NCBI GenBank assembly: GCA_038845265.1 | Contig: JAWBQR010000009.1 | Coordinates: 1-55,890 of the forward strand | Direction of reading: 5' to 3' | DNA length: 55,890 bases | DNA from: Nitrososphaerota archaeon | Lineage (GTDB): Archaea > Thermoproteota > Nitrososphaeria_A > Caldarchaeales > Calditenuaceae | Part shown: positions 897-19,803 of the stretch, one piece after another | How positions within the stretch are numbered: the stretch's first letter is position 1 | Layout of the letters: each line of letters opens with the position of its first letter | Notes under the pieces: generated by a model | The model's input: the letters and a program-made list of their open reading frames with translations, nothing else | Told to the model about the DNA's origin: nothing | The model's database searches: none | Translations under genes and position numbers: made by a program

Positions 897-1640
897 ATGA
901 GGATTAGTAAGCTGGTTTATATGATTGGTGATGGAGGCCGTGGGCTTTCTCATGACCTTGATTGCTGTGTTTATGTTGTTGATTGTAATGGTTCTTTTGT
1001 AGTTATTGATAGTGGCGTGGGGCTGGGTAATGAATTGCTTGTCAATAATCTGAGGGAGGACGGCATAAGTCTGGATAAGCTTAGATACTTGGTTGTGACT
1101 CATGCGCATTCTGATCATGCTTGTGGTGCTAGGTTTTTCCAGGAGAATTTTCAGGTAGAGGTGATTGCTCCTACCAGGGAGGCTGAGTTGCTCAGCAGTG
1201 GTTCCGATGCCGAGCTTGGACTAGATATGGCGCGTGGCCCCATATATCCACCTGACTTTAGATATATTCATTGTAAGCCTGATAGGGTCGTGAATGATGG
1301 TGAGGAACTCAGGGTCGGAGATAGGGTCTTTAGATTCATCCAAGTGCCTGGGCACTCTCAGGGAATAGTGTGTGTCTTTGAAAAAAATGAAAAAATCCTC
1401 TTCTCGAGCGACGTTGTTTTTCATGGGGGGACGATTGGGCTTGGTAATTGGGAGGGATGTGAATTATCAGAGTATCGGAGAAATATTGGTAAGCTTTCGG
1501 GGCTTGGAGTTGAGCAGTTGTTTCCGGGTCATTTCTTATTTGTTCTCCGGGGAGGCCAGAGACATCTGGACGTGGCGATTAATAATCTTAAGAATCCATG
1601 GGTCCCTCCAGCCTGGCTACATAGACATCCACATCTATAA
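897..1640 (+). CDS. Metallo-beta-lactamase-fold hydrolase (possible lactonase/glyoxalase II-like)
   Basis: THAHSDH (HxHxDH), PGHS, SSD and PGH metal-ligand motifs; ORF track starts at 888, ATG at 897. Confidence 0.85.
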   Translation: MRISKLVYMIGDGGRGLSHDLDCCVYVVDCNGSFVVIDSGVGLGNELLVNNLREDGISLDKLRYLVVTHAHSDHACGARFFQENFQVEVIAPTREAELLSSGSDAELGLDMARGPIYPPDFRYIHCKPDRVVNDGEELRVGDRVFRFIQVPGHSQGIVCVFEKNEKILFSSDVVFHGGTIGLGNWEGCELSEYRRNIGKLSGLGVEQLFPGHFLFVLRGGQRHLDVAINNLKNPWVPPAWLHRHPHL

Positions 1641-1661
1641 CAATTCTTATGACGCGCTACT

Positions 1662-2777
1662 TTAGCTCTTCTTTACTTCCTCTAACTTTTCTGGCAGATA
1701 GTTCGTGACGATGTATTCTAGACTATATCTGCTTAGGGCCTCGAGCTCTGCTTTTCTCTGAATTTTCTTGAAGTATGAGATCTCGCGTTTCCATGGGTCT
1801 ACTGCATATCGTGGGTCCTTCTCTAGCTCTGCTAATCTTCTTGTATCCTCATCGTTTAACCTCATCGCTGGGAGTTTGTATTTAGTTATGTCCGTGGCCC
1901 ATAATCCTGTCCAGTAAGCGTCTGGCGTCGTCAACTCTTTTACATGCGCAGCCAATGCTGAGCCATAGATCAATACATTTGCGATATGGACTCCCCAGGG
2001 GTCCGCGTCCGTGAAGATGTAGACTGGGAGTCTCAGTTCGTGGTTTAGTCTTCTTATGAATCTTCGGGTCGCCCTAGGTGCTTGCCCGGCTGTGTGGACA
2101 ATTATTGCCTTGAAAGTCTTGCTTACACCCTCTTCTAAGAATCTTTGATACACAGCTCCTTTCTCCACTACGAATACTTGCTTCGCGTCGCATTTGATGA
2201 ATCTTGCTGTAGCCATGGCTGGTCCGATCATTGCACCGTCCGGTATTGTAGTCAGATCTAATTTACTACCTTCATAGCCTGGAACGTTGTATTGCACAAC
2301 CAATGGTCCGAAGACGCTTGAACGCTCCTCGGGATATATGTTGAAATCTTCTCTTATCACTCCGAGAATTGATTCAAGCTCAGTCACCACGTTATCGCTT
2401 TCATTTTGGTCCTCAAAATCAATTCCGAATCCAAGTGCGTTATAGAAGGCGTCTCTAAGAGTTGATGTTTTTTTTCTCTCGACAAGTTGTTTAGAGAATA
2501 GCGCCATCCATAAAAGTTGTGTGAGTGGTCTAAGGTGCTTTACATTTCTCGCAGTTCTTGTCACTACCTTCGGGCCGAGAACATATTGCCTCAGATCAGC
2601 GTCATACACTATATTGGACGTAGTGCGTGCAGGCAGCTTAATCTCAGGCAGCTCCTTCATGGAGAGCTGTTCTACAACCCGATGTCCAAGCTGTTTCAGT
2701 TTATTTAACACTATCTCCCTAGTAGCAGTTATATCGAATTCTTCTCTCTTCGTTTCTGTTTTTTTCGTCTTGACCAT
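1662..2777 (-). CDS. top6A: DNA topoisomerase VI subunit A (Spo11 family)
   Basis: TLRDAFY catalytic-Tyr helix, Toprim VVEK and DADPWG, C-terminal KAELEAL. Confidence 0.93.
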   Translation of the reverse strand: MVKTKKTETKREEFDITATREIVLNKLKQLGHRVVEQLSMKELPEIKLPARTTSNIVYDADLRQYVLGPKVVTRTARNVKHLRPLTQLLWMALFSKQLVERKKTSTLRDAFYNALGFGIDFEDQNESDNVVTELESILGVIREDFNIYPEERSSVFGPLVVQYNVPGYEGSKLDLTTIPDGAMIGPAMATARFIKCDAKQVFVVEKGAVYQRFLEEGVSKTFKAIIVHTAGQAPRATRRFIRRLNHELRLPVYIFTDADPWGVHIANVLIYGSALAAHVKELTTPDAYWTGLWATDITKYKLPAMRLNDEDTRRLAELEKDPRYAVDPWKREISYFKKIQRKAELEALSRYSLEYIVTNYLPEKLEEVKKS

Positions 2778-2886
2778 TCCTTAGTATTATCATGAACGGA
2801 ATTTTAAATAGTTGTATTATCACTTATCGGTATGCTATTTTATTTTTGTATGAAAATTTAAATAGATTTTGCCGAATTTTACTAGC

Positions 2887-3930
2887 ATGGTTTGCCGGAT
2901 TTCTACTGAGTGGAAATACAGAGAAATGAGGACGCTCATACTTGAGAATTCGCTGATTAGGCTCGTTGTTCTGCTGGATAAGGGTGGCGATATTATAGAA
3001 TTTTTGTATAAACCCTTGGATTTGGATTTTATGTGGCATTCACCGATCGGTTGGAGGAATCCTATGATGGGTGCTCTTCCAGATCCAAATACCACGGGTG
3101 AGTTCATGGATTATTATGGTGGTGGATGGCAAGATATTGTCCCCTCTGCTGGAGGGAGAAACGTAATTCATAGAGGGGCAGAATTAGGAGTTCATGGTGA
3201 ATCTTCAATGCTTCCCTGGATGTGTGAAGTTGTAAAGGAAAGCAAAGACGAGGTATCTGCTCACCTCTTTGTCGAGGGGGTCAGGTATCCTTTTAGGCTT
3301 GATAGATTAATCACTATGAGGAAGGATGAGGAAAAAATTTTCTTCAAAGAAAGATTGACTAATCCCAGTAGACAGACACTTGAGTACTCATGGCTGCAGC
3401 ATCCTGCATTTGGAGAGCCTTTCCTAGAGCCTGGCTGTAGAGTAATGATACCTACTCCTGCTACTGTGATCGTTGAGGAGGGAGAGCCCTACGGTAGACT
3501 AAAGCCAGGTACTTATGAGTGGCCAATGGTCCTTTCTAAGAATGGAAATCTTATAGACCTAAGCGTGATTCCGTCAAGAGATATCGTTGCCGATGAAACA
3601 TCATTTATAGCGAATCTAAGGGAGGGCTGGTACATTCTCTCTAATCCGGGGCTTAGAATAGGCTTTGGACTTGCTTGGGATGTACAGGTATATCGATACA
3701 TATGGTTTTGGCAGAACTATAATCTACCCGACTATCCTTGGTATGGAATGGCTTGGAACGTTGCGCTTGAGCCATGCACAAGCTATCCAGGTGGTCTTCC
3801 AACACAGGTAGAGCGAAAGACACACTTGTCCCTACCGCCAGGAGGTTCTATCGAAGTCACTCTAACTGCATTTGTCCTTAGAAATCCAGAAAAAGTAAGT
3901 AAAATAAAACCAAGCGGAGAAGTAGAATAA
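2887..3930 (+). CDS. Aldose 1-epimerase/galactose mutarotase-like protein (DUF4432-like)
   Basis: GGWQDIVP, HGE, QHPAFG and ALEPCTS motifs typical of the mutarotase-like beta-sandwich family. Confidence 0.75.
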   Translation: MVCRISTEWKYREMRTLILENSLIRLVVLLDKGGDIIEFLYKPLDLDFMWHSPIGWRNPMMGALPDPNTTGEFMDYYGGGWQDIVPSAGGRNVIHRGAELGVHGESSMLPWMCEVVKESKDEVSAHLFVEGVRYPFRLDRLITMRKDEEKIFFKERLTNPSRQTLEYSWLQHPAFGEPFLEPGCRVMIPTPATVIVEEGEPYGRLKPGTYEWPMVLSKNGNLIDLSVIPSRDIVADETSFIANLREGWYILSNPGLRIGFGLAWDVQVYRYIWFWQNYNLPDYPWYGMAWNVALEPCTSYPGGLPTQVERKTHLSLPPGGSIEVTLTAFVLRNPEKVSKIKPSGEVE

Positions 3931-3983
3931 CCAGAATAAATAAATCCATATATTTGGTCTTAATATTTTTTGAGTGATTAGCT

Positions 3984-5120
3984 ATGCCGTGGAGTGAGGG
4001 GCCATTTTTAAGATTTAGTAGATTAACAAAGCTGGCTGAGTCTAAGGGTCTCGACGGAATTATAATCTCTGGCAAGAAAGAAATATATTATTTTACTGGA
4101 TTTCTTAGTGGTAGACTTATACTGCCTACATATCTATTTTATCGGGTGGGAAAGGAGCCAATCCTTCTTACAGGAGCTACTGATAGAGCACTTGCAGAGC
4201 AATCGTTCGGCGGCGAGATAGTTACTTATGATAACTATAGGCTAGACAGCAGAATGGTTGCGTATCCCGGATTTGTTGCTAACGAGGCTAAGACACTCAT
4301 CAAGGAATACATGAGTAATGCTGAGAAGATAGGTGCAGACAGCTGGAACCTACCATACTCATTATTTTTATCCATGAAGGGTGTACTTAACAAATTTAAG
4401 ATTATTGACATCTCGGAGGATATTCTCTACATGAGGACAGTTAAGGACTCGGATGAGATAGAGTTGATCAAGACTAGCTGTGCATTGAATGATCATGGAT
4501 ATGCTCTCGCTAAAGTATTGACAGTTCCGGGAAAGAGGGAGGTCGATATATACAGCGAGGTTCATCAGGAACTATGCAAGAAAGTAGGTACCTTCCAGTA
4601 TTCTGCTGGTGATTATGTATCCGGGGAGCGGTCATTATACATTGGGGGTCCTCCCACGGATAAGGTTCTGAAGCGTGGTGAGACCTTCATAATCGATCTA
4701 TGGGTTATCTTTAGGGAGTATTGGTCAGATACCTGTAGGACATTTGTTGTTGGCGGTGAGCCGACGGATAAGCAGTTAAAGATTCATTCAGTGGTGAGGA
4801 AGGCTCTTGAGACTGGAATGAATATGCTGAGACCGGGGGTCAGCGGCTCGGAAATCTACAAGGCCATCTATAGGACTTTTAAGGATGCTGGGTACGGTGA
4901 TTTCTTCCCGCATCATGCTGGGCACGGGATAGGACTCGACGGACAGGAGCCTCCATTCTTCATTCCAGCCTCTACTGACGTCCTCAAGCCAAACATGACA
5001 GTCACTCTAGAGCCTGGACTATACGTCCCCGAGATAAAGGGCGGAATAAGACTTGAAAAAAACTTCCTAGTAACAAATGAGGGGCCAGTAGAATTAACAA
5101 AATTCCCCCTGGACTTATAA
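3984..5120 (+). CDS. M24 family metallopeptidase (Xaa-Pro peptidase-like)
   Basis: Creatinase-type N-domain, D..YWSDTCRT, HHAGHGIG, EPG, GIRLE metal ligands. Confidence 0.88.
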   Translation: MPWSEGPFLRFSRLTKLAESKGLDGIIISGKKEIYYFTGFLSGRLILPTYLFYRVGKEPILLTGATDRALAEQSFGGEIVTYDNYRLDSRMVAYPGFVANEAKTLIKEYMSNAEKIGADSWNLPYSLFLSMKGVLNKFKIIDISEDILYMRTVKDSDEIELIKTSCALNDHGYALAKVLTVPGKREVDIYSEVHQELCKKVGTFQYSAGDYVSGERSLYIGGPPTDKVLKRGETFIIDLWVIFREYWSDTCRTFVVGGEPTDKQLKIHSVVRKALETGMNMLRPGVSGSEIYKAIYRTFKDAGYGDFFPHHAGHGIGLDGQEPPFFIPASTDVLKPNMTVTLEPGLYVPEIKGGIRLEKNFLVTNEGPVELTKFPLDL

Positions 5121-5132
5121 GTAAATAGTTTT

Positions 5133-7175
5133 TTATGCTTTCTTGGCTGCTTCTAGTTCCTTTGCGAGTGCCTCGTATGCGGCCTTGATCTCCTCTACAG
5201 CGCTTTCATCCTCCAGCGTGGTTATGTCTCCGACAGGCTTGCCTAGTGCTAAGGCCTTCACGACTCGTCTCATAATCTTACCACTCCTTGTCTTCGGAAG
5301 TCTACTCACCACGAATATATTCTTCGGATCAGCTATGGGGCCAATTTTTTCCCTGATCCATTTCTTTAACTCTGACTGAATGTTTGGTCCCGGATTTATT
5401 CCTGTCTTCAAGACAACGTAGGCTATCGGTACCTCGCCCTTAATTTCATCAGGTACGCCTACAACGGCTGCCTCTGCTACATATGGATGCGCAACCAAGG
5501 TAGACTCAAGTTCATATGTGCCAATTCTGTGACCAGCAACTTTTAGAACCTCGTCAGACCTCCCCAGAACCCATATGTATCCATCGTTGTCCCTTATAGC
5601 ATAGTCGCCAGTAAAGAAGTACCCAAACCTTGAGAAGTAGACTTCATTGTATCTCTCAGGCTCTCCCCACATCCCAGTCGGCGGAGCCGGCATTCCAGGC
5701 CAAGGCTTCTTTATTACTAGGTAGCCCTTCACACCGCTCTTAACAGGCTTGCCCTCTTCATCTAATATCTCTGGCTCAATGCCTGGAATTGGTGGACCAT
5801 TAGTTCCGGCTTTAAGCGGGACAAGCTTAAGTCCGGGTGTATGAGATATCAGTATACCTCCAGTCTCGGTCATCCACCAAGTACTTCCTACTGGACATCT
5901 CCTATTCCCAATTACCTCAAACAGCCACCTCCAAGCAGACGGATTAATTGGCTCACCAACACTGTGAATCAACCTAATAGTCGAGAGGTCATGTTTCTTA
6001 ACATAGTCCGTGCTTAGCCTCATGAACGACCTGACCGCTGTCGGAGAGGTGTAGAAAATCGTGACGCCATGTCTTTCAATGATACTCCACCATCTATCAG
6101 GCTCTGGATAGTCGGGTGCGCCCTCATAAATTAATGTCGTTGCACCACTTAACAACGGACCAAACACTACGTAAGAATGCCCAGTAACCCAGCCAACATC
6201 TGCTGTACACCAGTGAATATCATCATCCCTAATATCGAATACCCACTTCATCGTTGCGTGAAGAATAACAGCATACCCGCCAGTATCGCGGATAATTCCC
6301 TTTGGCTTACCGGTAGTCCCTGACGTATATATAACATAAAGTGTATCGTTGCTATCCATTTGTTCAGGCTCGACATACGTGTTAAAAGGCACATCCTTCA
6401 GTAGCTCGTCCAAGAAAACATCTCTATTACTGTCAACCGAGATATCTGTAAGTCCAAGCCTTCTAATTACGACTATCTTCTCTACTGTTTGGCAGTCTTG
6501 CACAGCCTTATCGGCAATGTCTTTTGTCCGAATTACGTTGCCACGTCTATAATACCCATCGGTCGTGAAGAGATACCTTGCCCCGAGGTCTTTAACCCTA
6601 GTTGCTAACGCATCCGCGCTAAATCCACTGAATACTTGGGTAAATATCACGCCAATTCTCGCCGCTGCCAGCATCAGTATAGGAAGCTCAGGAATCATAG
6701 GCATATACAGTGCAATCCGGTCCCCCTTCCTCAGTCCGAGTTTATTCTTCATCACAAAGGCTACCCTGTTAACAATCCTCCACAATTCATAGTATGTATA
6801 CGATCTTACCTCGAGTGGTTCATTGCTGCTCTTTGCTGGTTCTCCTTCCCAAATCATTGCAACTTTATTCTTTCTCCAATTCTTCACATGTCTATCTAGG
6901 CACAGATATGAGAGGTTTAGTTTTCCACCTATAAACCATTTGTATACGTTAGGGTACTCACCTGGCTCTAGAGTCTTTTCAAATGGTTTAAACCAATCTA
7001 ACTCCTTCGCCACACTGGCCCAGAAATCCTCGAATCTAGCAAGACTATCGGCATGCATCTTAAAGTATTCATCTACCGTACAGTTCTTATGCGCCCATTC
7101 ATTAAGAACTATCCGTTCTTCGAAGTCCAAGGTCTCTTTGAGAGATGGATTTTCACTCATGTTGAAAAAGCTCAT
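5133..7175 (-). CDS. acs: Acetyl-CoA synthetase (AMP-forming)
   Basis: YTSGTTGKPKG, ADVGWVTGHSY, TWWMTETG, LPKTRSGKIMRR; start may be ATG 7160. Confidence 0.93.
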   Translation of the reverse strand: MSFFNMSENPSLKETLDFEERIVLNEWAHKNCTVDEYFKMHADSLARFEDFWASVAKELDWFKPFEKTLEPGEYPNVYKWFIGGKLNLSYLCLDRHVKNWRKNKVAMIWEGEPAKSSNEPLEVRSYTYYELWRIVNRVAFVMKNKLGLRKGDRIALYMPMIPELPILMLAAARIGVIFTQVFSGFSADALATRVKDLGARYLFTTDGYYRRGNVIRTKDIADKAVQDCQTVEKIVVIRRLGLTDISVDSNRDVFLDELLKDVPFNTYVEPEQMDSNDTLYVIYTSGTTGKPKGIIRDTGGYAVILHATMKWVFDIRDDDIHWCTADVGWVTGHSYVVFGPLLSGATTLIYEGAPDYPEPDRWWSIIERHGVTIFYTSPTAVRSFMRLSTDYVKKHDLSTIRLIHSVGEPINPSAWRWLFEVIGNRRCPVGSTWWMTETGGILISHTPGLKLVPLKAGTNGPPIPGIEPEILDEEGKPVKSGVKGYLVIKKPWPGMPAPPTGMWGEPERYNEVYFSRFGYFFTGDYAIRDNDGYIWVLGRSDEVLKVAGHRIGTYELESTLVAHPYVAEAAVVGVPDEIKGEVPIAYVVLKTGINPGPNIQSELKKWIREKIGPIADPKNIFVVSRLPKTRSGKIMRRVVKALALGKPVGDITTLEDESAVEEIKAAYEALAKELEAAKKA

Positions 7176-7304
7176 TTACCGAATTAATAAATTTTTCCAA
7201 AAGATACATGATTATACAAACTAAAAGTTGCCTATTTTTAAAATATTTTTTACTATGTTGTTTCCAGTTAACAAGCTTAAGTACAGCATTATGATTTAGA
7301 AAAA

Positions 7305-8528
7305 GTGATGAAGAATTACTTAGCTATGTATCTACATCCATGGGACTTGATAGATGAGGGTCCAGAGGCCGTATTGAGCACAATGCACGAAATGGGATTG
7401 ACGCATATAAATTTGGCGACGAGCTATCACTGCGGTAGATATATACTTCCCCATAACCCAAATAAACTTATCTACTTTGCTGAAGAGGGAGTAGTTTACT
7501 TCACCCCAACTCCAGAATATTATAAAAAAACAAAATTAAGACCCAGGAGATCCCAAAAATATAGAGAATATGATGCATTAAAAATCGCTATAGACAACTC
7601 TAGGAACTATGGACTTAGTATAAACTCATGGACAGTCTGTTTGCACAACTATGAACATGTAAGGAGCAATCCCGACGTAGCTGTGAGAGACCCCCTCGGT
7701 AATATTGATGAGAACTTCATGTGTCCAAACAATCCTGACGCGAGAGAATATGTAAAGGGTCTTGTCTCAAATCTAGCCAGCAACTATGACCTAAACATGA
7801 TCCAACTGGAATCTGTGGCATTTCCATGGGGAGTCATGCATTTCGACCATCATGAAACATTTGGAACATATATAGACCCACTACTATCCTATCTATTCTC
7901 AACATGCTACTGCGATAACTGTGAAGAAAAGGCAAAGGAATATGGAATAAATTTCTCAGACATAAGAAAAAGAGCAAGAGAAATAATATCAAAAATAATT
8001 TCCTACCCAACTGAATTATTTATAAAGATTCCCGAGAGCGACGTAGCATCGAGACTCTACGAGTACTTAATACGTGATGACACCCTAAACAAACTACTTG
8101 AGTTTAAATCAACCACAAGTTCAGAGATAGTTCAAGAAATACGAGAAAATGTGAGATCGATTAACCCAAAGGTTAAGCTCAGCGTAATAACGGGGGCAAC
8201 AATGTGGATCAACGAGGGCTTCAATCTGAGAAAAATTAGCAAGATAGTAGATGCAATAGACTACATATGCTATTTCGAAAATCCATATAGAATAGAGAAT
8301 CATATTAGGATTTTAAGAGAAAATACTGAGGAAAAATGCTGGGTCATTCCTTCATTAAGAACAAACTATCCAATAATCTATACTAAAGATAATCTATATG
8401 CAAGCATAAACGCCGCAATAAATGCAGGCGCTGACGGAATATCTCTATATAACTACGGCTGGACGCCCAAAACAATTTTTTCATGGATCAAGACAGCAAT
8501 AGCCCAGATAAAACACTCCCTAGGTTAG
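7305..8528 (+). CDS. Uncharacterised glycoside-hydrolase-like TIM-barrel protein
   Basis: Alternating beta/alpha pattern, N-terminal YLHPWD...ATSYH, MCPNNP and CYCDNC Cys cluster, C-terminal GADGISLYNYG; sugar-catabolic context. Confidence 0.55.
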   Translation: MMKNYLAMYLHPWDLIDEGPEAVLSTMHEMGLTHINLATSYHCGRYILPHNPNKLIYFAEEGVVYFTPTPEYYKKTKLRPRRSQKYREYDALKIAIDNSRNYGLSINSWTVCLHNYEHVRSNPDVAVRDPLGNIDENFMCPNNPDAREYVKGLVSNLASNYDLNMIQLESVAFPWGVMHFDHHETFGTYIDPLLSYLFSTCYCDNCEEKAKEYGINFSDIRKRAREIISKIISYPTELFIKIPESDVASRLYEYLIRDDTLNKLLEFKSTTSSEIVQEIRENVRSINPKVKLSVITGATMWINEGFNLRKISKIVDAIDYICYFENPYRIENHIRILRENTEEKCWVIPSLRTNYPIIYTKDNLYASINAAINAGADGISLYNYGWTPKTIFSWIKTAIAQIKHSLG

Positions 8529-12045: not shown

Positions 12046-12056
12046 ATCCTCCCCAC

Positions 12057-13112
12057 CTATGTTAACGTGTGGATCTTCCAATATATTGCATTTGCTTCTA
12101 TTACTCTTAATGCGTTTTTGTATGCTAGTTTCTCAATATCAGATTCTTTTAATCCCTTATCAAGCAGTATCTTGAATAGATTTGAAATTTTTGTTATGTC
12201 TTCTAAGCCTTTTGGTGCTTTACCATCTATGAGGCCAAAATAATCTGTGCCTATGGCTATAATGTCGGGTCCAAAGTTTTGGTAAACATACATGATTTGG
12301 TCAGCGAGTGAGTAAATGTCCTCATTACCGCCTATCATTCCGAAGATGAATCCAACTACTCCTTTATTTTTCTTAAATTCCTGATAAATCTCATCATCTA
12401 GGTTTCTTGGCACGTCTTTTAGCTTTCTTGCATTTGAATGACTATTTATCACAGGTAATTTCGATGCATTCAAGACATCGATATGTGTATTCTTGCTTGC
12501 ATGTGCCAAGTCTAAAATTATTCCGCGCTTGTTTGCTTCCTTTACGAGTTCTTCACCCTCCCCTGTTAGGCCATAATCTTTTGTAGACATGCATGATGCC
12601 CCGTATCTATTATCGAAGTTCCACATAATTTGAAGGCTCCGCACACCTAAGTTATAATAAAGCCTAATATCATCAACATCTTCTAACATGTATGCACCCT
12701 CCAGCGCCAACAAAAATCCAATTCTCTCCCCATTTATTGATCTCTGTAAATCATCTTTTCTAAGTAATATGACCAAATCTCGTGGATAGAGTTCTGCAAG
12801 ACGATAATAGACCTTTAGATGCTCCAGAGAAGTAGCATTAGTTGCTCTCGGTGTCCATGCTCGTATCGCCTTCTCAGCATATCCCTTCGTCAGTGTCTCG
12901 CTAATCCTCGGAGACACGGTAGAAAGCAGACAAAACACTGACGAAAACACAATAGCAACCTTCGCCTTCCTGTACTTCGGAATATCGCCATGTCTACCTG
13001 GCATATCCTTATCAAACTCTTCTAAACCAAACTCTAAACCACTAGCACCGCAAACATAGTAGTAAGAAATATCTTCATGCAGGTCAATTATCATAGGAGA
13101 AGAACTCGTCAA
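12057..13112 (-). CDS. Membrane dipeptidase family (M19) amidohydrolase
   Basis: DLHED, ALEG, DLAH, SHSN, RNL, GTDYFG motifs. Confidence 0.88.
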   Translation of the reverse strand: MTSSSPMIIDLHEDISYYYVCGASGLEFGLEEFDKDMPGRHGDIPKYRKAKVAIVFSSVFCLLSTVSPRISETLTKGYAEKAIRAWTPRATNATSLEHLKVYYRLAELYPRDLVILLRKDDLQRSINGERIGFLLALEGAYMLEDVDDIRLYYNLGVRSLQIMWNFDNRYGASCMSTKDYGLTGEGEELVKEANKRGIILDLAHASKNTHIDVLNASKLPVINSHSNARKLKDVPRNLDDEIYQEFKKNKGVVGFIFGMIGGNEDIYSLADQIMYVYQNFGPDIIAIGTDYFGLIDGKAPKGLEDITKISNLFKILLDKGLKESDIEKLAYKNALRVIEANAIYWKIHTLT

Positions 13113-13276
13113 TTTATCTCATTCAATAATCTTCATTCATTAATATACATTTAGCAAAACATGAAACTCATAGAATTGAATAAAAATAACACCGTCCCCA
13201 TTATCCTGCTGTATCTTAATAAATAAAATAGTAAAAACATAAATACATGCCGCGATGAATAATTACTTGAGAAAAG

Positions 13277-14761
13277 ATGGTTGAATACAAAATTAATCGG
13301 AGAAGGGCGTTATCAACAGCGGGTAAAGTAGCGATTGGGGTGGTTGCATCAGGCATTGTGGCCGGTGCAGCTGGTTATTTAGCTGGAATGAGCGCTGCCC
13401 CCGCGAGGGTTGAGACAGTTACGAAAACTGAAACGGTCGGAGGAACTACAGTTCGCGAGACTGTTACGAGGACAGTTACTGCCGGCCCATCACCTGTTAC
13501 AGGGCCGCCTCTTCAATTTGTCCACTGGCATTACAGAGACGACATCGTAACATCTTATGTAAAGAGATTTATGGAATATTACAACGAGAAGGTAGATGAG
13601 GTATTGTTAGCTAATGAAAACTATGGACCATTAATGGAGGCAAAATTCCAAGCTGGTGACGTTATTGACATGCATTACGCAAACTTTTTCATGGTTTCCA
13701 GATGGATAAGCTTAGGTTGGGATAGAGATGTTGAAGCATTCCCAGAAATAGACCAAATAAAGGCAGAAATGTATCCAAGCATCGTAGAGGCCTATAGCAC
13801 AGCCGAGGGAAAACTTGCAGGGTTACCGTACTTCTGGTCAGCTAGATCGGCACCCGTAGTAAATGATGCCATACTTGAAAAGGCAGGTATGGCTGGTGAA
13901 AGACCCGGTACATGGGACGAGCTCTGGGAAATGTCTAGAAGAATCAAAGCAGCTGGAGCTGCCACTTACCCCGTCATGCCTCACTGGTTCAATGCTTTCT
14001 ATGGAATAGTTTGGGATTTTGAAGCAGAACTTGGAAATGTGTATAATGATCCAGAGTTAACTAAAACATTTATAGCGAAGGACTTTTCACCAGTTTTCGA
14101 TGTCAATACAGAAGTTGCTGAACTACTTAAGACTTGGCAAGATGTAACAAAAGAGGGACTTGTTGATCCGGCCGTGTTCGGACAGGCTGGAGACTCAGAT
14201 CATGTTTCAGCAATTGTGACCGGAAACTATGCCTTTACTCCAACAGCCCTCTACTACTTTAAAGTACAGAATGACCCCAGTCAATCACGGATACCGCTCG
14301 GAAAAGCCAACTTAGTACCTGTTACTAAGCAGGGATGGGGAGTTATCGATACCGGGTTATACTGCTGGCCCAAGAAAGTAACAGACGAAGAAAGGTCTCA
14401 GCGATTGATTAAATTCCTCGGATGGAGAACACCATGGGGAGAGCGGCTGACGTCAACGAGCTGGGCTATAACTGATGCTCTTGGATCTGGATACATGGAT
14501 ACGAATCGGCTTCCCGCCGTCAGGAAAGCCTTTAGAGAATGGTTAGGAGACCGTGCTGACGCGACTCTCAAGACGTTTGACGATATAGCTGCTACCATGA
14601 GTAGGCCATGGGTATATAAGTCGCCAATGTATCTCGAGTGGGCAAACTTCGCATTCCCAGTAATGTCTGCTGTTGCATCAGGTACACAATCAGTAAGTGA
14701 TGGAGTGAAGACGCTTAGGTCAAAATTAGATGAACTATATAAGAAATTCCATGCCAAGTAA
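13277..14761 (+). CDS. Carbohydrate ABC transporter substrate-binding protein, Tat-exported
   Basis: RRRAL twin-arginine signal plus hydrophobic helix, Thr/Val-rich linker, GKLAGLPY..., PGTWDEL family-1 SBP pattern; followed by two permeases. Confidence 0.85.
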   Translation: MVEYKINRRRALSTAGKVAIGVVASGIVAGAAGYLAGMSAAPARVETVTKTETVGGTTVRETVTRTVTAGPSPVTGPPLQFVHWHYRDDIVTSYVKRFMEYYNEKVDEVLLANENYGPLMEAKFQAGDVIDMHYANFFMVSRWISLGWDRDVEAFPEIDQIKAEMYPSIVEAYSTAEGKLAGLPYFWSARSAPVVNDAILEKAGMAGERPGTWDELWEMSRRIKAAGAATYPVMPHWFNAFYGIVWDFEAELGNVYNDPELTKTFIAKDFSPVFDVNTEVAELLKTWQDVTKEGLVDPAVFGQAGDSDHVSAIVTGNYAFTPTALYYFKVQNDPSQSRIPLGKANLVPVTKQGWGVIDTGLYCWPKKVTDEERSQRLIKFLGWRTPWGERLTSTSWAITDALGSGYMDTNRLPAVRKAFREWLGDRADATLKTFDDIAATMSRPWVYKSPMYLEWANFAFPVMSAVASGTQSVSDGVKTLRSKLDELYKKFHAK

Positions 14762-14782: not shown

Positions 14783-15652
14783 ATGCCTAGACTTACAGAC
14801 AAACAATTAGCTATTTTTTTGATATCACCATTAATTATTTTTGTTGCGACAATTAATTTATATCCGATAGGTTATTCATTATGGCTAAGTTTTAACAGAG
14901 TAAGCCTTCTAGAGAAAACTGTAACCTACGTCGGTCTCACTAACTACTTCAAGATAGGAAATGACTTATTTCTAAACCAAGCTTTTCTCGTATCAGCGAG
15001 ATTCATTTTAGAATCAACCGCCTTGATAATTACTATCTCTTTAATAACTGCTCTTGTATTAGCTCAGAGGTTTAGAGGCCAGTCCTTGCTTAAGGTTTTA
15101 GTAATATTGCCGTGGGCCTTGTCGGAATTCGCCGTGGCTATTGCGGGGAGATTCTTCTTAGATAGAAATTATGGATTTCTCAACGCCCTACTTAAAAATA
15201 TTGGTTTAATCAATGAAGGGATAAACTTTTTAGATGCAGCCTTCGCAGTAGAATGGTTAGCAATATTTTTTGCTTGGAATGTATCTCCTCTCGGTGCATA
15301 CTTTATTCTTTCAGCGATACAAACGATACCTGAGGATTTATATAAACAGGCGAGAATTGACGGTGCCTCTTACTTTATGAGGTTTAGGAATGTAACCTTT
15401 CCATTTATCCGATACGCTGTGCTAATAACTGGTGTATTAGCATGTATATTATCAACATCTTCAGTAGTGATTTCCTTTGCTTTGACTGGTGGTGGTCCAG
15501 GGACTGCCTCAACACCAGTCACTCTTTATAATTTTAGAGTATTCTTCTACAACCAAGACTATGGATATGGCGCAGCTATATCTTGGATAACACTGATAGC
15601 AGTATTATTGTTAACAATTGCGTACTTTAGATTATTAACGATAAGGAGGTGA
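14783..15652 (+). CDS. Sugar ABC transporter permease (MalF/UgpA type)
   Basis: Six TM segments, EAA-like loop LYKQARIDGA, TGGGPG. Confidence 0.92.
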   Translation: MPRLTDKQLAIFLISPLIIFVATINLYPIGYSLWLSFNRVSLLEKTVTYVGLTNYFKIGNDLFLNQAFLVSARFILESTALIITISLITALVLAQRFRGQSLLKVLVILPWALSEFAVAIAGRFFLDRNYGFLNALLKNIGLINEGINFLDAAFAVEWLAIFFAWNVSPLGAYFILSAIQTIPEDLYKQARIDGASYFMRFRNVTFPFIRYAVLITGVLACILSTSSVVISFALTGGGPGTASTPVTLYNFRVFFYNQDYGYGAAISWITLIAVLLLTIAYFRLLTIRR

Positions 15653-16533
15653 CCTGTGTGGCAATTAAGCGTGACCGCATTTTAGTATACATCGCGGCGA
15701 TAATCATAGGATTATATAGTATTGGCCCTATCTATAGCTTAGTAATCATATCATTAATGGATGTTAGAGACGTTGTGGCGGGACATATATTCCCGTATAA
15801 TCCTAACATTAATGCATATTTAAGAGTTGTAGGATTTGACGTGCAAGGACCTTATGGTTTCTTAAGAGCTTATGGAGGCTCAAGACAACTGATGCAGGGT
15901 CTCCTCAACATCTCGATAATAGCTCCCATAGTAATGATTATCACCCTGTTAGCGTCTATTCCTGCTGGTTATGCCTTAGGAAGATTCCGGATAGGGCGCC
16001 TAAGGTCTATACTGATTATTATTCTCTTAGGGACGCGTTCATTACCTCCTGTCTCAGTGGCGTTACCATACTTCTTCCTATTTACCCAACTAGGACTCAG
16101 ATCCACATTACAAGGAATGATAATCATACACCTAACGATCACGGTGCCCATTGTAACTTGGATATTGATGGGGTTCTTCGCAGCGTTGCCTCAAGACCTC
16201 GAAAAAGCTGCACGGATTGACGGTTGTAGTAGGCTTGCAGCACTATTCAAAGTTGTATTGCCACTTGCCGCACCTGGGATCGCGGCCAGCGCAATCATTG
16301 CATTCCTATTTTCATGGAATGACTTTTTCTATAGCTGGCTCCTCTCCCAAGGAACAAGTGCGGCTACATATAACGCGCAACTATCAGGCTTCTTTAACTT
16401 TCAAAACGAGCCCGCTATGTTCGCAGCCGCTGTTACACTTCAAATAATTGTAGCAACAATAATAGCAAGTGTGCTCCAGAAGTACATTACTCAACTTAAG
16501 ATAGTGGATCCAGGCACAGTAGTTGTAGAGTAG
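15649..16533 (+). CDS. Sugar ABC transporter permease (MalG/UgpE type)
   Basis: LEKAARIDGC loop, FSWNDF; overlaps upstream stop codon. Confidence 0.92.
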   Translation: MTCVAIKRDRILVYIAAIIIGLYSIGPIYSLVIISLMDVRDVVAGHIFPYNPNINAYLRVVGFDVQGPYGFLRAYGGSRQLMQGLLNISIIAPIVMIITLLASIPAGYALGRFRIGRLRSILIIILLGTRSLPPVSVALPYFFLFTQLGLRSTLQGMIIIHLTITVPIVTWILMGFFAALPQDLEKAARIDGCSRLAALFKVVLPLAAPGIAASAIIAFLFSWNDFFYSWLLSQGTSAATYNAQLSGFFNFQNEPAMFAAAVTLQIIVATIIASVLQKYITQLKIVDPGTVVVE

Positions 16534-16542
16534 CTATTTAGT

Positions 16543-18210
16543 TCATTTTTTTATATTTTGGCTTTTTAAATAGTTTTCAGTTGCTTCTCTAACTTGCTTT
16601 ACCGGCTCAGGAATAACACTTTTAGGTTCTTCCTTTATCCGCTCTTTGTAGTGGACGAAATCGATCCTAATTAAGGAGGATGCTGCTTCAGTTGCTGATT
16701 TAAAGCATTGAATTTTAACATGGGTTGCATCAAGTATATCGAGATCAGATGGTCTAACAATTTTTCTTGAGTACTGGTCAATTCCAACCATTTCACCTTT
16801 GTTATGATGGCTTTTAAGATTGCTTTTCATGGTTATGGGATCAATACCACAATTAATCCCCAACGTCATTATGGTGTCTTCTATTGCTTCGGCATATGAT
16901 AACATTGCTAACTGGGTTTTATTATCATATTTATAGGCAGCATTACGGATTTGACATGCAATCCGCATCTCTACAGCCCCGCCGCCTGGAACATATCCTA
17001 GATCATTTATGGCTAAAATAACTGATTTAATTGAGTTTTGAACAGCGTCGTTAATCGTTTCTAATATCTTTTCAGACACTCCTCTCAATAGTATGCTACA
17101 ATAACTAGGATTTGCGCACCCTTCGAAAATGGTCCATCTATCTAATGCTGAGATTATCACCTCATTTACAGAGTTGCATTCGCCGAGATGTGATGTCGTT
17201 AAATTCTTTACATTAGTAATAGGCACGGCATTAGTCGCGTTCTTTAAAATGTTAAGATCCGTTGATGATACATTTCTTATAGCTAAAACATTTTTCAATA
17301 CGAATAGTCTCCTAAGTTCTTCCGAGATGTTTCCCTTACAAAGTATGACGTTTGCTCCTGTTTTTAATATTGCATTTAGGATGTCATTTAAAATTTCCCA
17401 TCTTGTATCATAGAATTTTTTTATGTTAAAATCACCTTTCAGCATGAAGTTGACTGATAAATCTGGTCTTTTAAATCCCAAATCATTTTCAATTATGGCT
17501 ATTTTTGCGTTTTTTATTTTTTTAGGCATCATTAAATCTGCCCCTGATTTATGGAGTAAAACACCATGAATTAATCTAGAATCTTCAATTGAACCTCCGG
17601 CCCTAGTTTTTATAATTATAGTATCTAACATTCTAATTTTGTGTCTTATTATATCTTCTTGGCGATTAGCTAACAACTTCGTAACTATCTCGGCTAAGTA
17701 TGTTGAAGATCTTAAGTCGAGTTTGGATGCCAAACTAGTTTTTACTAATGAAAAAATTATTTTTTCATTAAATTTTACAGGTTTCGATTCACACCTTAAG
17801 GTATCTAAAGCTATACGCAATGCTTTATTGTAGCCCTCAATAATTATATGTGGATGAAGCCCCTCTCTCATCAAATTTACTGCCTTTTTATAAAGTTCTA
17901 CAGCTAGAATTGAGGTCATAAGTGATCCGTCGCCTACCTCTTTTTTCACAGCAATACCAGCATCTGCCAAAATGCTAATTACTGGATGCAGTGTTTTGAC
18001 CTCTCTGAGTATTCTTTCTCCATCTTTTGTTAATTTATATTCACCTGTTTGTTTATTAAAAATAATCTTTGAATTACCCGTGGGGCCTAAGGATGTTTTA
18101 AGCATTTCACCTAATCGTTCAATATAATATAAATTTTCGGTCAATAATTCGTTCTTCCATAGAAAACGTCCAGTTAGTATAGCATTTAATTTTTTATAAT
18201 TCATCGCCAC
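16543..18210 (-). CDS. Divergent group II chaperonin (thermosome/TCP-1 family paralogue)
   Basis: SLGPTG..K, TKDG, EVGDG, GLHP, SILLRG, PGGGAVE, SATEAA..LIRID; nucleotide-site motifs degenerate. Confidence 0.88.
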   Translation of the reverse strand: MAMNYKKLNAILTGRFLWKNELLTENLYYIERLGEMLKTSLGPTGNSKIIFNKQTGEYKLTKDGERILREVKTLHPVISILADAGIAVKKEVGDGSLMTSILAVELYKKAVNLMREGLHPHIIIEGYNKALRIALDTLRCESKPVKFNEKIIFSLVKTSLASKLDLRSSTYLAEIVTKLLANRQEDIIRHKIRMLDTIIIKTRAGGSIEDSRLIHGVLLHKSGADLMMPKKIKNAKIAIIENDLGFKRPDLSVNFMLKGDFNIKKFYDTRWEILNDILNAILKTGANVILCKGNISEELRRLFVLKNVLAIRNVSSTDLNILKNATNAVPITNVKNLTTSHLGECNSVNEVIISALDRWTIFEGCANPSYCSILLRGVSEKILETINDAVQNSIKSVILAINDLGYVPGGGAVEMRIACQIRNAAYKYDNKTQLAMLSYAEAIEDTIMTLGINCGIDPITMKSNLKSHHNKGEMVGIDQYSRKIVRPSDLDILDATHVKIQCFKSATEAASSLIRIDFVHYKERIKEEPKSVIPEPVKQVREATENYLKSQNIKK

Positions 18211-18252
18211 CGAGACAAATTACATTGATGGAAATATATACATTTTTTGTGT

Positions 18253-19335
18253 TTAGACCATTTTTCCTCTTGCTTTTATTTGCCATTCGTAAATTACTTT
18301 GTCATTTCTCGTTATATATATTGTGTCGTGTTGGTTTACGCATGTGCATACGTGGTATGGTATGAATTCTAGTTTGTCTCCTAGTTTTATTTTGTTTTGT
18401 GCTTCGCCTGTTATTTTTAGCCATCCGTGTTCTTCTGAGAATTTTATGACTTCTACTCCCTGTATTCCTGTTGCGACTGGGTATCTATTCATGTCGAGCT
18501 GGAAGGCTTTTGAGCCTGCGTCGATTACTCCTCTGTCGGGTGCTGATCTGCTCATGACCGTCGCTAATACGCGAAGGGCGCATGTCTCTATTGTTGCCAC
18601 TGCTCTATCGACTAGATAGTAATCGTTGAATACATATGTCCCTGGCTGAATCTCTGTCACCTCTTCAAATTTGGAGCTGTATGCTACTGTCGGCGTTGAG
18701 CCGACGCTTACTTCTTTAACTTCTATTCCTCTATTTTTGATTAGTCTGACTGCTTCGAGGGTCATTTGGATTGCTTCTTCTGTTAGTTTTTGTCTTTCAT
18801 CTGCTTTTAGTGGTGCTCCTGCGTGTCCCTCGTACCCCATTACTCCCGCAAAGTATAGTCCCTCGCTGCGATGTATGAGGCTTGCTAATTCGGGTGCTTT
18901 CTCTGGTGAAACGCCTGTTCTATGCATCCCACAGTCTACGTCAATATAGACTCCGAGCTCAACCCCTCTCTCCTTCATGGACTGTGAAAGGCTTATGACG
19001 TTTTCTGGATGATCTACTGCTACGTATATTTTAATTTTCTCTGCAAGGTCAGCGAGTCTCTTTATCTTTTTCTCTCCTACTATTTCATTCGTGATGAAGA
19101 TGTCGTCTATCCCGTGATTCGCCATCACTTCTGCTTCTCCAAGCTTTTGGACACATATGCCCTTGGAGCCCTCTTCTAGCTGTAGCTTTGCGATCTCTGG
19201 GACTTTATGTGTCTTCACATGTGCCCTCAGCTTGACTCCGCTCTCCTTTGCGAGTTTAGCCATCTCTCTTATATTCCTCATCATTACGTCAAAATTCACT
19301 ACTAGGGCAGGCGTATCAATATCCAGCTTATTCAT
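18253..19335 (-). CDS. Fold-type III PLP enzyme, DSD1/D-serine dehydratase/D-threonine aldolase family
   Basis: DTPAL, LRAHVKTHK (PLP Lys), GSTPT, DAGSK, SEEHG, PYHVCTCVN. Confidence 0.87.
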   Translation of the reverse strand: MNKLDIDTPALVVNFDVMMRNIREMAKLAKESGVKLRAHVKTHKVPEIAKLQLEEGSKGICVQKLGEAEVMANHGIDDIFITNEIVGEKKIKRLADLAEKIKIYVAVDHPENVISLSQSMKERGVELGVYIDVDCGMHRTGVSPEKAPELASLIHRSEGLYFAGVMGYEGHAGAPLKADERQKLTEEAIQMTLEAVRLIKNRGIEVKEVSVGSTPTVAYSSKFEEVTEIQPGTYVFNDYYLVDRAVATIETCALRVLATVMSRSAPDRGVIDAGSKAFQLDMNRYPVATGIQGVEVIKFSEEHGWLKITGEAQNKIKLGDKLEFIPYHVCTCVNQHDTIYITRNDKVIYEWQIKARGKMV

Positions 19336-19413
19336 AGTTATATATTGATTACGCATGCGTATAAACTTATTCAAAAAATAAAAATGAGTAAATAATAAAT
19401 TATGTTTTTTGCA

Positions 19414-19803
19414 TTATTGTTTCCCCACGTATGCTATTGCATCTATCTCGACTAAGAAATTCTTGCCAGGAATGTTTCCAGCTACAGTGCTTCTAGCTGG
19501 TGGTTCTTCTTTGAAGTATTCCCGGTAGACATCGTTCATGTCGTTAAAATCTTCAGCCCTTGCGAGAAACACGGTGACTTTTACCACGTCTTTCAGAGAT
19601 GCTCCAGCCGATTCAAGGACTGCCTTTATGTTTTCTAGTGCGCGTCTAGTCTGCTCTCTAATTCCGCCTGGAACCATCTGTCCTGTTGCTGGGTCTATTC
19701 CACCCATGCCCGCGACGAAGATGAAATCGCCTGCACGTATGGCCTGTGAGTATGCTCCGAGAGGCCTTGGGCCCTTTTCTGAGAAAATTACTTGTTTCGG
19801 CAT
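19414..19803 (-). CDS. ridA: RidA/YjgF enamine-imine deaminase
   Basis: GAYSQA, PPARSTV (catalytic Arg), VEIDAIA. Confidence 0.92.
   Translation of the reverse strand: MPKQVIFSEKGPRPLGAYSQAIRAGDFIFVAGMGGIDPATGQMVPGGIREQTRRALENIKAVLESAGASLKDVVKVTVFLARAEDFNDMNDVYREYFKEEPPARSTVAGNIPGKNFLVEIDAIAYVGKQ

Follow-up and report, generated by a model that had tools for sequence, protein, structure and literature searches.

A Partly Conserved Catabolic Gene Cluster in a Caldarchaeales Archaeon and a Possible Oxidative Route Through Amino-Sugar Acids

Between positions 888 and 19,803 of contig JAWBQR010000009.1 (assembly GCA_038845265.1, a Nitrososphaerota archaeon of the Caldarchaeales), genes for a sugar transporter lie among genes for a luciferase-like oxidoreductase (LLM), several hydrolases and enzymes dependent on pyridoxal phosphate (PLP). 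The locus raises the question of which compound these proteins break down and whether they act in a single pathway. The whole stretch of DNA analyzed, 55,890 nucleotides long, is called the window; it is contig C9 of a 1.37-Mb genome in 34 contigs, 93% complete. The region is a real, partly conserved catabolic module. Judged from its gene families and conserved residues, it may be a cluster that degrades an imported carbohydrate via a D-alpha-amino-beta-hydroxy acid, most simply an amino-sugar acid or its N-acyl form, a reading that we favor tentatively and stop short of calling probable. This amino-sugar-acid route is the best reading of the locus, and we infer every step of it.

Gene Content and Proposed Route

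Gene families were called by Pfam and NCBIfam scans of the open reading frames in the window. All the families named in the original prediction, which had proposed an F420-dependent pathway for (N-acyl) amino sugars, were recovered. The transporter and enzyme genes are the following.

888-1640, plus strand: MBL-fold hydrolase, candidate lactonase (PF00753, 81 bits)
2869-3930, plus strand: DUF4432 protein, mutarotase-like fold family (PF14486, 63.9 bits)
3984-5120, plus strand: M24 metallohydrolase with Creatinase_N, prolidase/creatinase type (PF00557, PF01321)
5133-7175, minus strand: acetate-CoA ligase, Acs (TIGR02188, 877 bits, over the cut-off)
7305-8528, plus strand: GHL, a cytoplasmic glycoside hydrolase-like (GH-like) TIM-barrel protein of an uncharacterized family, 407 aa (GHL10 hit of 22 bits, below the cut-off)
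8530-9621, minus strand: MalK-type ABC ATPase, CUT1 (PF00005, OB_MalK PF17912, TOBE_2 PF08402)
9889-10899, plus strand: LLM, F420 Adf/FGD subfamily (Pfam and NCBIfam scans)
10906-12081, minus strand: DgaE/SelA-related fold-type I PLP enzyme (TIGR01437, 235 bits, below the cut-off)
12057-13112, minus strand: M19 (renal-dipeptidase family) binuclear metallohydrolase (PF01244, 246.4 bits, profile positions 7-318 of 319)
13277-14761, plus strand: solute-binding protein (SBP), family 1 (PF01547, 29.2 bits)
14783-15652 and 15649-16533, plus strand: two CUT1-type ABC permeases (PF00528 in both; reading frames overlapping by 4 nt)
18253-19374, minus strand: DSD1-like fold-type III PLP enzyme, D-serine dehydratase/D-threonine aldolase family (PF01168, 110.8 bits; PF14031, 81 bits)
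19414-19803, minus strand: RidA enamine/imine deaminase (PF01042, 127 bits; TIGR00004, 135.2 bits, cut-off 106.25)

In the proposed route, the CUT1 ABC transporter, composed of the SBP, two permeases and MalK, would import a glycoside or sugar. The cytoplasmic GH-like barrel would release a monosaccharide, the anomers of which would be interconverted by DUF4432, and the LLM would oxidize the free, unphosphorylated sugar at C1, with F420 as the probable cofactor. A metallohydrolase would then open the lactone, remove the N-acyl group or do both; M19 is the best candidate, with MBL and M24 as possible ones. The expected product, a D-2-amino-2-deoxy-aldonate (e.g., glucosaminate or galactosaminate), is a D-beta-hydroxy-alpha-amino acid, from which water and ammonia would be eliminated by the dehydratase-type DSD1-like enzyme, the DgaE-like enzyme or both. 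RidA would turn the resulting enamine/imine into a 2-keto-3-deoxy acid, and a PfkB kinase and an Eda aldolase on contig C3 would carry this product into central metabolism. The original prediction had allowed for the missing last steps being encoded elsewhere, and a search for kinase and aldolase genes indeed located a gene similar to PfkB 2-keto-3-deoxygluconate (KDG) kinases next to an Eda-type aldolase gene on C3. Taken as a whole, the predicted route gained conserved sub-blocks and dehydratase-type residues, but lost the FGD and DgaE identities, any link to Acs, M24 and MBL beyond the genus, and a complete F420 synthesis.

Sub-Blocks Conserved in Distant Lineages

Import, hydrolysis, mutarotation and oxidation had been placed in one route, and the corresponding genes do travel together. 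In one genome of another family (G125, family f23), LLM (57% identical to that of the window), DUF4432 (57%), GHL (45%) and MalK (65%) are contiguous. Orthologues of DUF4432 (57-59%) adjoin LLM in G125 and in two other genomes (G026 and G201), and a 49% identical homologue does so at locus L084. More generally, other lineages place LLM orthologues (50-57%) next to GHL, DUF4432, M19 or DSD1-like genes. When metagenomes were scanned with a GHL-family alignment, 80 loci were returned: in seven of them, all from one lineage, LLM (51-53%) stands directly beside a GHL that is 39-42% identical, and in several others GHL is adjoined by deacetylases of the EF_0837 type.

The predicted association of a deacylase, a PLP-dependent eliminase and RidA is likewise seen outside the genus. 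In a sister genus of the same family (g2), the DSD1-like (66-70%), LLM (50-52%) and M19 (49-54%) genes are adjacent in four genomes, and a fifth carries a DSD1-like-M19 pair. Homologues of DgaE lie near deacetylases and RidA: the neighbors at 20 archaeal DgaE loci include an EF_0837/PRK09237-type amidohydrolase/deacetylase (six loci), a GFO dehydrogenase (six), an enolase-superfamily dehydratase (five), an MBL protein (three) and RidA (two).

The surroundings of GHL follow the same pattern in both domains. Nine GHL groups have a flank of at least 5 kb; within 6 kb of GHL, some dehydrogenase occurs in six of these groups (LLM in four) and some deacylase in five (the EF_0837 type in four). A large bacterial group is 50-75% identical to a Dongiaceae protein. 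After dereplication, 19 of its loci have a flank of 6 kb or more; these contain an ABC ATPase in 12 cases, often with RbsB/RbsC-type components, a DSD1-like gene in seven and an Amidohydro_2 (fuconolactonase-like) gene in seven, as well as deacylases of the AstE/DoeB-like (four), Amidohydro_3 (four) and EF_0837 (two) types. Overall, in archaea and bacteria, GHL neighbors LLM, N-acyl-amino-acid deacylases of four families, DSD1-like enzymes, RidA, lactonase-type hydrolases and transporters of the sugar ABC type. The archaeal locus L084 combines MalK, an enolase-superfamily gene, GHL, a deacetylase, an amino-acid permease, the DUF4432 homologue (49%), an LLM (43%) and two DSD1-like genes. As a separate observation, positions 2172-6119 of L084, in its GHL stretch, also hold two MttB-family (trimethylamine methyltransferase-like) genes and several aldehyde:ferredoxin oxidoreductase genes.

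Co-occurrence was evaluated in a sample of 401 genomes of the phylum, of which 20 have the DgaE-like gene, 13 GHL and 94 M19. GHL and DgaE-like co-occur in eight genomes, where ~0.65 would be expected; the nominal hypergeometric tail of 9e-9 exaggerates the significance, since only six genera are represented among the eight genomes, which are not independent. Gene clustering exceeds chance: the GH-like, DgaE-like, DSD1-like and DUF4432 genes are single-copy in the 1.37-Mb genome (tblastn), and subsets of the block recur in distant genomes.

What recurs is a network of three groups: a sugar transporter with GH-like, mutarotase-like and dehydrogenase genes, one or two amide or lactone hydrolases, and a D-amino-acid PLP enzyme, usually with RidA. 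Across lineages, the dehydrogenase is an LLM, GFO or SDR protein, the deacylase is M19 or of the EF_0837, Amidohydro_3 or AstE-like type, the lactonase-type enzyme is MBL or Amidohydro_2, and the PLP enzyme is DSD1-like or DgaE-like. Such varied slots are the pattern expected from one pathway undergoing non-orthologous displacement. It is possible, if somewhat doubtful, that a non-phosphorylative, oxidative pathway for (N-acyl) amino sugars, so far undescribed, is widespread in both archaea and bacteria, with GHL as its marker and with each of its other steps taken by non-orthologous enzymes in different lineages. It would comprise a free-sugar dehydrogenase, F420-dependent in Caldarchaeales and related archaea, a lactonase, a deacylase of the N-acyl-D-amino-acid type, a fold-III metal-dependent D-amino-acid dehydratase or a DgaE-like lyase, and RidA.

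The idea that DgaE and the entire block move together was considered and dropped. In the surroundings of 20 distant DgaE homologues, from the 20 of the 401 genomes that have one, tblastn found none of the M19, LLM, SBP, DSD1-like, GHL and DUF4432 genes within 10 kb, and M24 and ACS were likewise not found; of the other genes of the window, only RidA (two loci) and weak MBL hits were present. A scan of genome contigs with the DgaE-like protein alone returned only three close loci and is uninformative on distant conservation.

The Luciferase-Like Oxidoreductase and the Supply of F420

The LLM had been called an FGD-type dehydrogenase, an identity that was not retained. It scores 174.4 bits against TIGR03557, under the cut-off of 210.4, and 156 bits against a narrower curated model within that wider family, under a cut-off of 420. 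In the PDB, it matches Adf best (1RHC, 215 bits), an alcohol dehydrogenase that depends on F420; the scores are lower for FGD2 (153 bits) and FGD1 (137-139 bits). The motifs DHFYPWHH and GSGEAMNE align with DHFHPWYH and GAGEAMNE of Adf, and the catalytic His, Trp and Glu (His39, Trp43 and Glu108 in the 1RHC chain) are kept; the Glu of the active site in this subfamily is a residue that we take to be catalytic. The paralogues of LLM in its own genome are at most 34% identical.

His40 and Trp44 are given as substrate-binding residues of FGD1 in PMC13434993. The phosphate pocket of FGD, composed of Lys197, Lys258 and Arg282 (Rh-FGD1 numbering), is described as strictly conserved among enzymes with FGD activity in PMC5352752. 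In an alignment to 5LXE, these three positions correspond to a gap, Met and Ser in LLM. The phosphate pocket is hence absent and, because of this, LLM is not an FGD. Its residues make it a candidate F420-dependent dehydrogenase for a free (unphosphorylated) sugar.

A comparable enzyme exists in Mycobacterium tuberculosis. FGD2 (Rv0132c; PDB 9FP4), an LLM protein without the phosphate pocket, was reported in 2026 as an F420-dependent glucose dehydrogenase (PMC13434993). The two share the subfamily (153 bits), the sugar-binding catalytic residues and the lack of the pocket, and FGD2 uses F420 with free sugars. FGD2 is, on the contrary, bacterial and associated with the cell envelope, while the LLM of the window is closer to the methanogen Adf (215 bits) and is encoded in a catabolic cluster.

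Three results count against an F420-dependent oxidation of an amino sugar by this protein. Firstly, FGD2 is inactive on N-acetylglucosamine in the published panel (PMC13434993). Secondly, LLM also scores 154 bits on a model of the FMN type. Thirdly, the genes for F420 biosynthesis, which the original prediction had pointed to as a check, were found only in part. CofE (316.5 bits) and CofD (322.1 bits) are both over their cut-offs (contigs C16 and C6 of the same genome), but neither FO synthase (CofG/CofH) nor CofC turned up in the 93%-complete genome, and CofH is under its cut-off in all five relatives searched. The supply of F420 would therefore depend on salvage. This suggests either that the FO head group is salvaged or that the picture is incomplete, and the lineage may have to take up FO or F420 precursors made by other organisms or present in its environment.

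The PLP-Dependent Enzymes and RidA

The DgaE-like enzyme is, by its sequence, a family relative of DgaE and not a DgaE, whose defining features it fails to show. It is under both NCBIfam cut-offs (182.6 vs. 600 for NF047797 and 235 vs. 385.3 for TIGR01437), and its PDB matches are 8T7J (155 bits) and Salmonella DgaE (7LC0, 144 bits). In the phmmer alignment to 7LC0, the PLP lysine is kept (SGGK with SGAK), as is the alpha-carboxylate-binding Arg226 (GRK with GRK), a residue named for DGL in PMC9529869. The His162-His163 loop, described there as strictly conserved across all DGL sequences, is lost, with His162 aligned to Asp and His163 to a gap. Among the arginines that bind the 6-phosphate, Arg332 is replaced by Tyr and Arg346 by Gln, a lead only, as the C-terminal alignment is weak, and Arg301 is outside the aligned part. 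The substrate is probably unphosphorylated, and the protein is a candidate ammonia-lyase for an unphosphorylated D-amino(sugar) acid.

For the DSD1-like enzyme, the predicted role as an eliminase was strengthened by its residues. Overall, the protein is closest to D-threonine aldolases and BhcC (~198 bits), with 133 bits to D-serine dehydratase and 124 bits to D-threo-3-hydroxyaspartate dehydratase. Its PLP-lysine region, RAHVKTHK, aligns with RPHVKTHK of the chicken enzyme (3ANU). The metal site reads PYHVCTC (His-Val-Cys), compared to PYHACAT in 3ANU, and this His-x-Cys arrangement is unlike the H-V/C-D motif of the four aldolases compared. Moreover, the position of His193, the proposed base of AxDTA, is occupied by Ala. 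According to PMC4401734, His and Cys as metal ligands denote a dehydratase, and His and Asp an aldolase. Because of the His-x-Cys metal site and the lack of the aldolase base, the enzyme is read as a putative beta-eliminating dehydratase, and elimination on a D-beta-hydroxy-alpha-amino acid is predicted. The RidA gene, which is co-directional and immediately upstream, separated by 39 nt, fits with this reading.

A second RidA of the genome is encoded directly beside an EF_0837/PRK09237-type amidohydrolase/deacetylase (L063, G000:C6:41876-43410); a gene for an M20 peptidase is close by, and none for a PLP enzyme adjoins the pair. In a relative (L070), a pair of RidA and an EF_0837-type deacetylase lies ~5 kb from GHL-MalK.

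The GH-Like Barrel and the Hydrolases

GHL has 71 homologues in the protein collection searched. A sequence search of the PDB gave no match (best E 0.7), and the ESM Atlas returned only bacterial clusters without names. The AlphaFold2 model (pLDDT 91.8) is a TIM barrel, and its Foldseek matches are Cwp19 (GHL10), the C-terminal domain of PgaB (GH153) and GH42, all with a probability of 1.00 and TM values of 0.55-0.60. An alignment of 28 sequences revealed H114, N115, E169, H179, H183, Y323 and Y382 among the invariant residues. Of the two catalytic carboxylates (acid/base and nucleophile) of such glycoside hydrolases, E169 is the only invariant candidate in this alignment; the C-terminal half has no invariant Asp or Glu. 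GHL also carries Cys140 and the group Cys201-x-Cys203-xx-Cys206, a pattern that presumably resembles the zinc site of GH42 enzymes. No signal peptide was detected. The modeled fold is thus GH-like, and the function as a hydrolase is putative.

M19 is a candidate de-N-acylase or lactonase. DUF4432 weakly matches a 'hypothetical aldose 1-epimerase' (3TY1), a marginal hit that gives no basis for a ligand, and all NCBIfam hits of the M24 protein are under the cut-offs. Acs, the sole copy found in the genome by tblastn, is probably a housekeeping enzyme. For Acs, M24 and MBL, the only link to the cluster is genus-level synteny; for this reason, and since Acs has no second copy, the recapture of acetate by Acs proposed in the original prediction is compatible with the data and unsupported by them.

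The match of GHL to Cwp19, which is the GHL10 domain of a peptidoglycan hydrolase, and to PgaB, which binds GlcN/GlcNAc, raises the question of whether the cluster rather salvages bacterial cell-wall fragments or glycopeptides with D-amino acids. A glycopeptide would then be imported, the GH-like barrel would cleave the glycan, M19 and M24 would hydrolyze peptides with D-residues, the PLP enzymes and RidA would deaminate the products and Acs would capture acetate. The closest solved relatives of M19 are named dipeptidases in the PDB, and the bacterial one among them, Sco3058, reportedly prefers L-Xaa-D-Xaa dipeptides. Both the DgaE and the DSD1 families act on D-amino acids, and the DNA of the window is present in hot-spring communities. 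The structural match is, however, modest (TM about 0.58 at ~10% identity). DSD1-type dehydratases, with their metal-to-hydroxyl mechanism (PMC4401734), need a beta-hydroxyl group, which D-Ala, D-Glu and meso-diaminopimelate of peptidoglycan do not have, the conserved partners LLM and DUF4432 would be left without a role, and the Pfam and NCBIfam scans revealed no MurNAc etherase, amidase or racemase. We regard this salvage as quite improbable.

Layout of the Cluster and Evidence Against a Single Amino-Sugar Route

The original prediction had described the genes as a contiguous block. The families do lie side by side, but two housekeeping genes identified in the Pfam and NCBIfam scans interrupt them.

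1662-2777, minus strand: topoisomerase VI subunit A (Top6A)
16543-18210, minus strand: Cpn60/TCP1 thermosome

The block comprises seven or more transcription units, which are spread over the two strands. The 3' end of M19 overlaps or nearly abuts the start of the DgaE-like gene, and the two therefore form an operon, divergent from that of the SBP and the two permeases. A shared operator-like motif was searched for as 12-mers with up to two mismatches present in at least three of the four divergent intergenic regions (2778-2868, 7176-7304, 9622-9888 and 13113-13276). It is absent: 11 hits were obtained, compared to a median of ~12 in shuffled sequences (30 shuffles, 2-36 hits).

The DNA of the window was detected in hot-spring metagenome runs of nine studies. 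Contigs of RNA libraries (Logan; two metatranscriptome runs of one study, and two further runs, probably of DNA) cover parts of the cluster, including portions of the MBL, M24, ACS, MalK, SBP and first permease genes. The stretch from LLM to M19 is almost uncovered in the two RNA runs; such contigs cannot rank expression, and the gap proves nothing.

Co-conservation of the neighborhood, proposed in the original prediction as a check, was found for the sub-blocks in distant lineages, but the full arrangement is kept only in relatives at the genus level. At five such loci (L005, L006, L065, L067 and L069), the enzymes are 70-92% identical to those of the window and the order is shared; MalK adjoins GHL in these relatives. 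All but L069 have a second DgaE paralogue between MalK and LLM, which is adjoined by an enolase-superfamily gene in L065 and L067. M19 is missing from L069, otherwise the most similar locus. In the same-genus genome G339, the DgaE orthologue (L006 7125-7985, i.e., G339:C6:13103-13963) is broken: residues 2-127 and 262-389 remain, with a TGA stop and the middle part gone, whether by decay or by an assembly fault. A DgaE paralogue nearby, 36-39% identical, is intact.

Together with the interrupted layout, the lack of an operator motif, the narrow range of the full arrangement, the missing M19 and the broken DgaE orthologue in close relatives and the lack of most other cluster genes around distant DgaE homologues, two further findings weigh against a single amino-sugar route. 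One is that the substrate, stated as an amino sugar in the original prediction, has no specific marker in the cluster and is inferred: NagA/NagB, GH18/GH20 and CE4/CE14 were not seen in the Pfam and NCBIfam scans. The other is the company of these genes in some relatives. Two genomes of family f2 have an array in which GFO genes stand with LLM, DUF4432, a creatininase-family gene, M19, SBP, permeases and MalK. In family f2 and in one GHL lineage (group 2), the neighbors include an epimerase-like TIM barrel and a creatininase/IolN-like gene, together with three or four genes of the GFO type. The best NCBIfam hit of this barrel is fructoselysine 3-epimerase, with a weaker one to IolO. These neighbors look like those of inositol or neutral-sugar catabolism.

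The cluster could be one of the islands in which catabolic genes tend to gather, with two or more separate pathways next to each other. The ABC transporter, GH-like, DUF4432 and LLM proteins would form a module for neutral sugars or glycosides, feeding an oxidative sugar-acid or inositol-type route. M19 as a dipeptidase, M24 as a peptidase, DSD1-like as a D-Ser/D-Thr dehydratase, DgaE-like and RidA would form a module for D-amino acids or peptides. The numerous transcription units with Top6A and the thermosome between them fit with such an island, and so do the absence of a common operator motif, the GFO, IolN-like and epimerase-like neighbors in f2 and GHL group 2, and the fact that characterized M19 enzymes are dipeptidases. 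G125 likewise has LLM-DUF4432-GHL-MalK without a PLP enzyme in the 15 kb examined, and the g2 trio is without a transporter or GH-like gene. In that very trio, however, LLM, the supposed sugar enzyme, sits between DSD1-like and M19 in four genomes. GHL is next to deacylases and DSD1-like/RidA in both domains, GHL and DgaE-like co-occur far above expectation, and a D-serine/D-threonine route needs no dehydrogenase. On balance, separate pathways are unlikely.

The same neighbors in the relatives bring up another nitrogen-bearing carbohydrate, e.g., an inosamine-type aminocyclitol or an amino acid glycated in the Amadori/Heyns manner. Dehydrogenases, epimerase-like TIM barrels and amide hydrolases would act on the ring and PLP enzymes on the amino-acid part. 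LLM, DUF4432 and M19/GHL of relatives do stand beside three to four GFO/IolG-like genes, an IolN-like gene (91 bits to IolN) and the TIM barrel similar to fructoselysine 3-epimerase/IolO, and the cluster of L084 has an amino-acid permease. The window itself, on the contrary, has no GFO, IolN-like or epimerase-like gene, the relevant NCBIfam scores are far under the cut-offs, and no deglycase or kinase of the FrlB/FrlD type was seen in scans of the cluster. This substrate is very unlikely, and the oxidative route through an amino-sugar acid accounts for the cluster best.

The Transporter and Its Exchangeable Cassette

The set of CUT1 components is complete: the SBP, two BPD_transp_1 permeases and a MalK with OB/TOBE domains. 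The N-terminus of the SBP has an RRR motif and a membrane anchor. Its closest solved relatives are marginal (E ~3e-4), and no ligand can be inferred from them.

At this locus, the SBP-permease-permease genes exist in two forms, which are 41-48% identical to each other, while the flanking enzymes are 75-90% identical. The window shares its form with L069 (SBP 95% identical). The other form is present in L004, L005, L006 and L067, with an SBP 41-45% identical to that of the window. This looks like a swap of a cassette that changes the specificity of the transporter.

The cassette of the window type is accompanied by the thermosome-like gene. This thermosome is divergent, 28-32% identical to the three others of the genome and 65% to its counterpart in L069. 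Its participation in the pathway was rejected, as it is absent at the matching position in L005 and L006. Thermosome-like neighbors elsewhere (L047 and L180) are roughly at chance level for a family with four copies per genome.

Comparison with Known Pathways

Archaeal branched (non- or semi-phosphorylative) Entner-Doudoroff pathways employ a sugar dehydrogenase, a lactonase, a sugar-acid dehydratase, a KDG kinase and a KD(P)G aldolase. The proposed route is built likewise: a free sugar would be oxidized at C1, the lactone opened and a 2-keto-3-deoxy acid formed by elimination, on which a kinase and an aldolase would act. The difference is in the enzymes, with NAD(P) and enolase-superfamily/IlvD dehydratases there and, as proposed here, F420 and ammonia-releasing PLP enzymes with RidA. 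In kind, the route would be an Entner-Doudoroff type of oxidative catabolism through sugar acids, to which a PLP-dependent deamination is added.

The closest characterized system is the dga operon of Salmonella; what it has in common with the cluster is limited to the family of the PLP lyase and the use of an aldolase. In Salmonella, as proposed here, a SelA-related fold-type I PLP enzyme deaminates a D-amino-sugar acid, and an Eda-type aldolase acts after the 2-keto-3-deoxy acid has been formed (PMC9529869). Uptake in Salmonella is by a phosphotransferase system, and here by an ABC transporter; therefore, no 6-phosphate would be made on entry. Unlike Salmonella DgaE, the enzyme of the window lacks His162/His163 and two of the three phosphate arginines. 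Here, the kinase and aldolase are on another contig, and the dga operon has no counterparts of LLM, GH-like, DUF4432, M19, DSD1-like and RidA.

For the haloarchaeon Natrarchaeobius, a related route for GlcNAc/glucosamine was predicted in 2025. It consists of a CE14 deacetylase, a glucose dehydrogenase, an unidentified kinase and a DgaE homologue leading to 2-keto-3-deoxy-6-phosphogluconate (KDPG), and the cluster contains a RutC-family gene (PMC12343721). An archaeal oxidative amino-sugar route via glucosaminate with a DgaE homologue and a nearby RidA/RutC-family gene is thus common to both, and the general idea is therefore already in print. In Natrarchaeobius, deacetylation comes first, the glucose dehydrogenase is of the NAD(P) type and phosphorylation is assumed to precede deamination. 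The cluster of the window has, in contrast, an LLM of the F420 family, residues that point to unphosphorylated substrates, a second PLP fold (DSD1-like) and the uncharacterized GH-like family. The earlier claim that no such archaeal pathway has been described consequently needs qualifying: this enzyme combination was not found in the literature searches, but the type of route has been predicted.

The DSD1-like enzyme has characterized relatives in chicken DSD (3ANU), yeast Dsd1p and D-threo-3-hydroxyaspartate dehydratase, with which it has both Pfam domains, the His-x-Cys site and the lack of the aldolase base in common. It differs from them in that its sequence is closer to D-threonine aldolases/BhcC and in its partners LLM, M19 and GH-like, which are not theirs.

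Searches of a literature collection returned no F420-family free-sugar dehydrogenase in this role, no report of the GH-like family as a conserved partner, no dehydratase-type DSD1 homologue beside a DgaE-like enzyme and no M19 in place of the usual deacetylase. Nothing was retrieved on the catabolism of N-acetylglucosaminate/galactosaminate, nothing relevant on DUF4432, and no hit for 'glucosaminate ammonia-lyase' or 'glucosaminate dehydratase'.

Archaeal use of amino sugars is known from the hydrolytic, phosphorylative chitin pathway of Thermococcales. If the amino-sugar-acid route is true, archaea would gain a second one, and functions could be assigned to the GH-like family, to DUF4432, to members of TIGR01437 other than DgaE and to archaeal M19. 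The LLM would be a natural archaeal F420-dependent free-sugar dehydrogenase, for which mycobacterial FGD2 is the sole comparable enzyme found in the literature searches, and sugar catabolism would be coupled to the F420 pool in an organism that apparently salvages the deazaflavin head group. That the GH-like family recurs in Pseudomonadota-like contigs, next to D-amino-acid dehydratases, RidA and deacylases, suggests that the pathway extends beyond archaea of hot springs.

Other Features of the Window

The rest of the window consists of housekeeping genes, among them the his operon and those for succinyl-CoA synthetase and Sua5. A gene resembling tRNA-Pro(GGG), with an intron of 13 nt, lies at 21445-21536 on the minus strand and was found only by ARAGORN with introns allowed; default ARAGORN and Rfam miss this tRNA at 21.4 kb, the acceptor stem is imperfect and a second intron is possible. 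The histidine biosynthesis operon (26799-33013, plus strand) is preceded by an Lrp/AsnC regulator (26195-26659) and encodes HisG, HisD, a 382-aa HAD-like protein, HisB, HisH, HisA and HisF.

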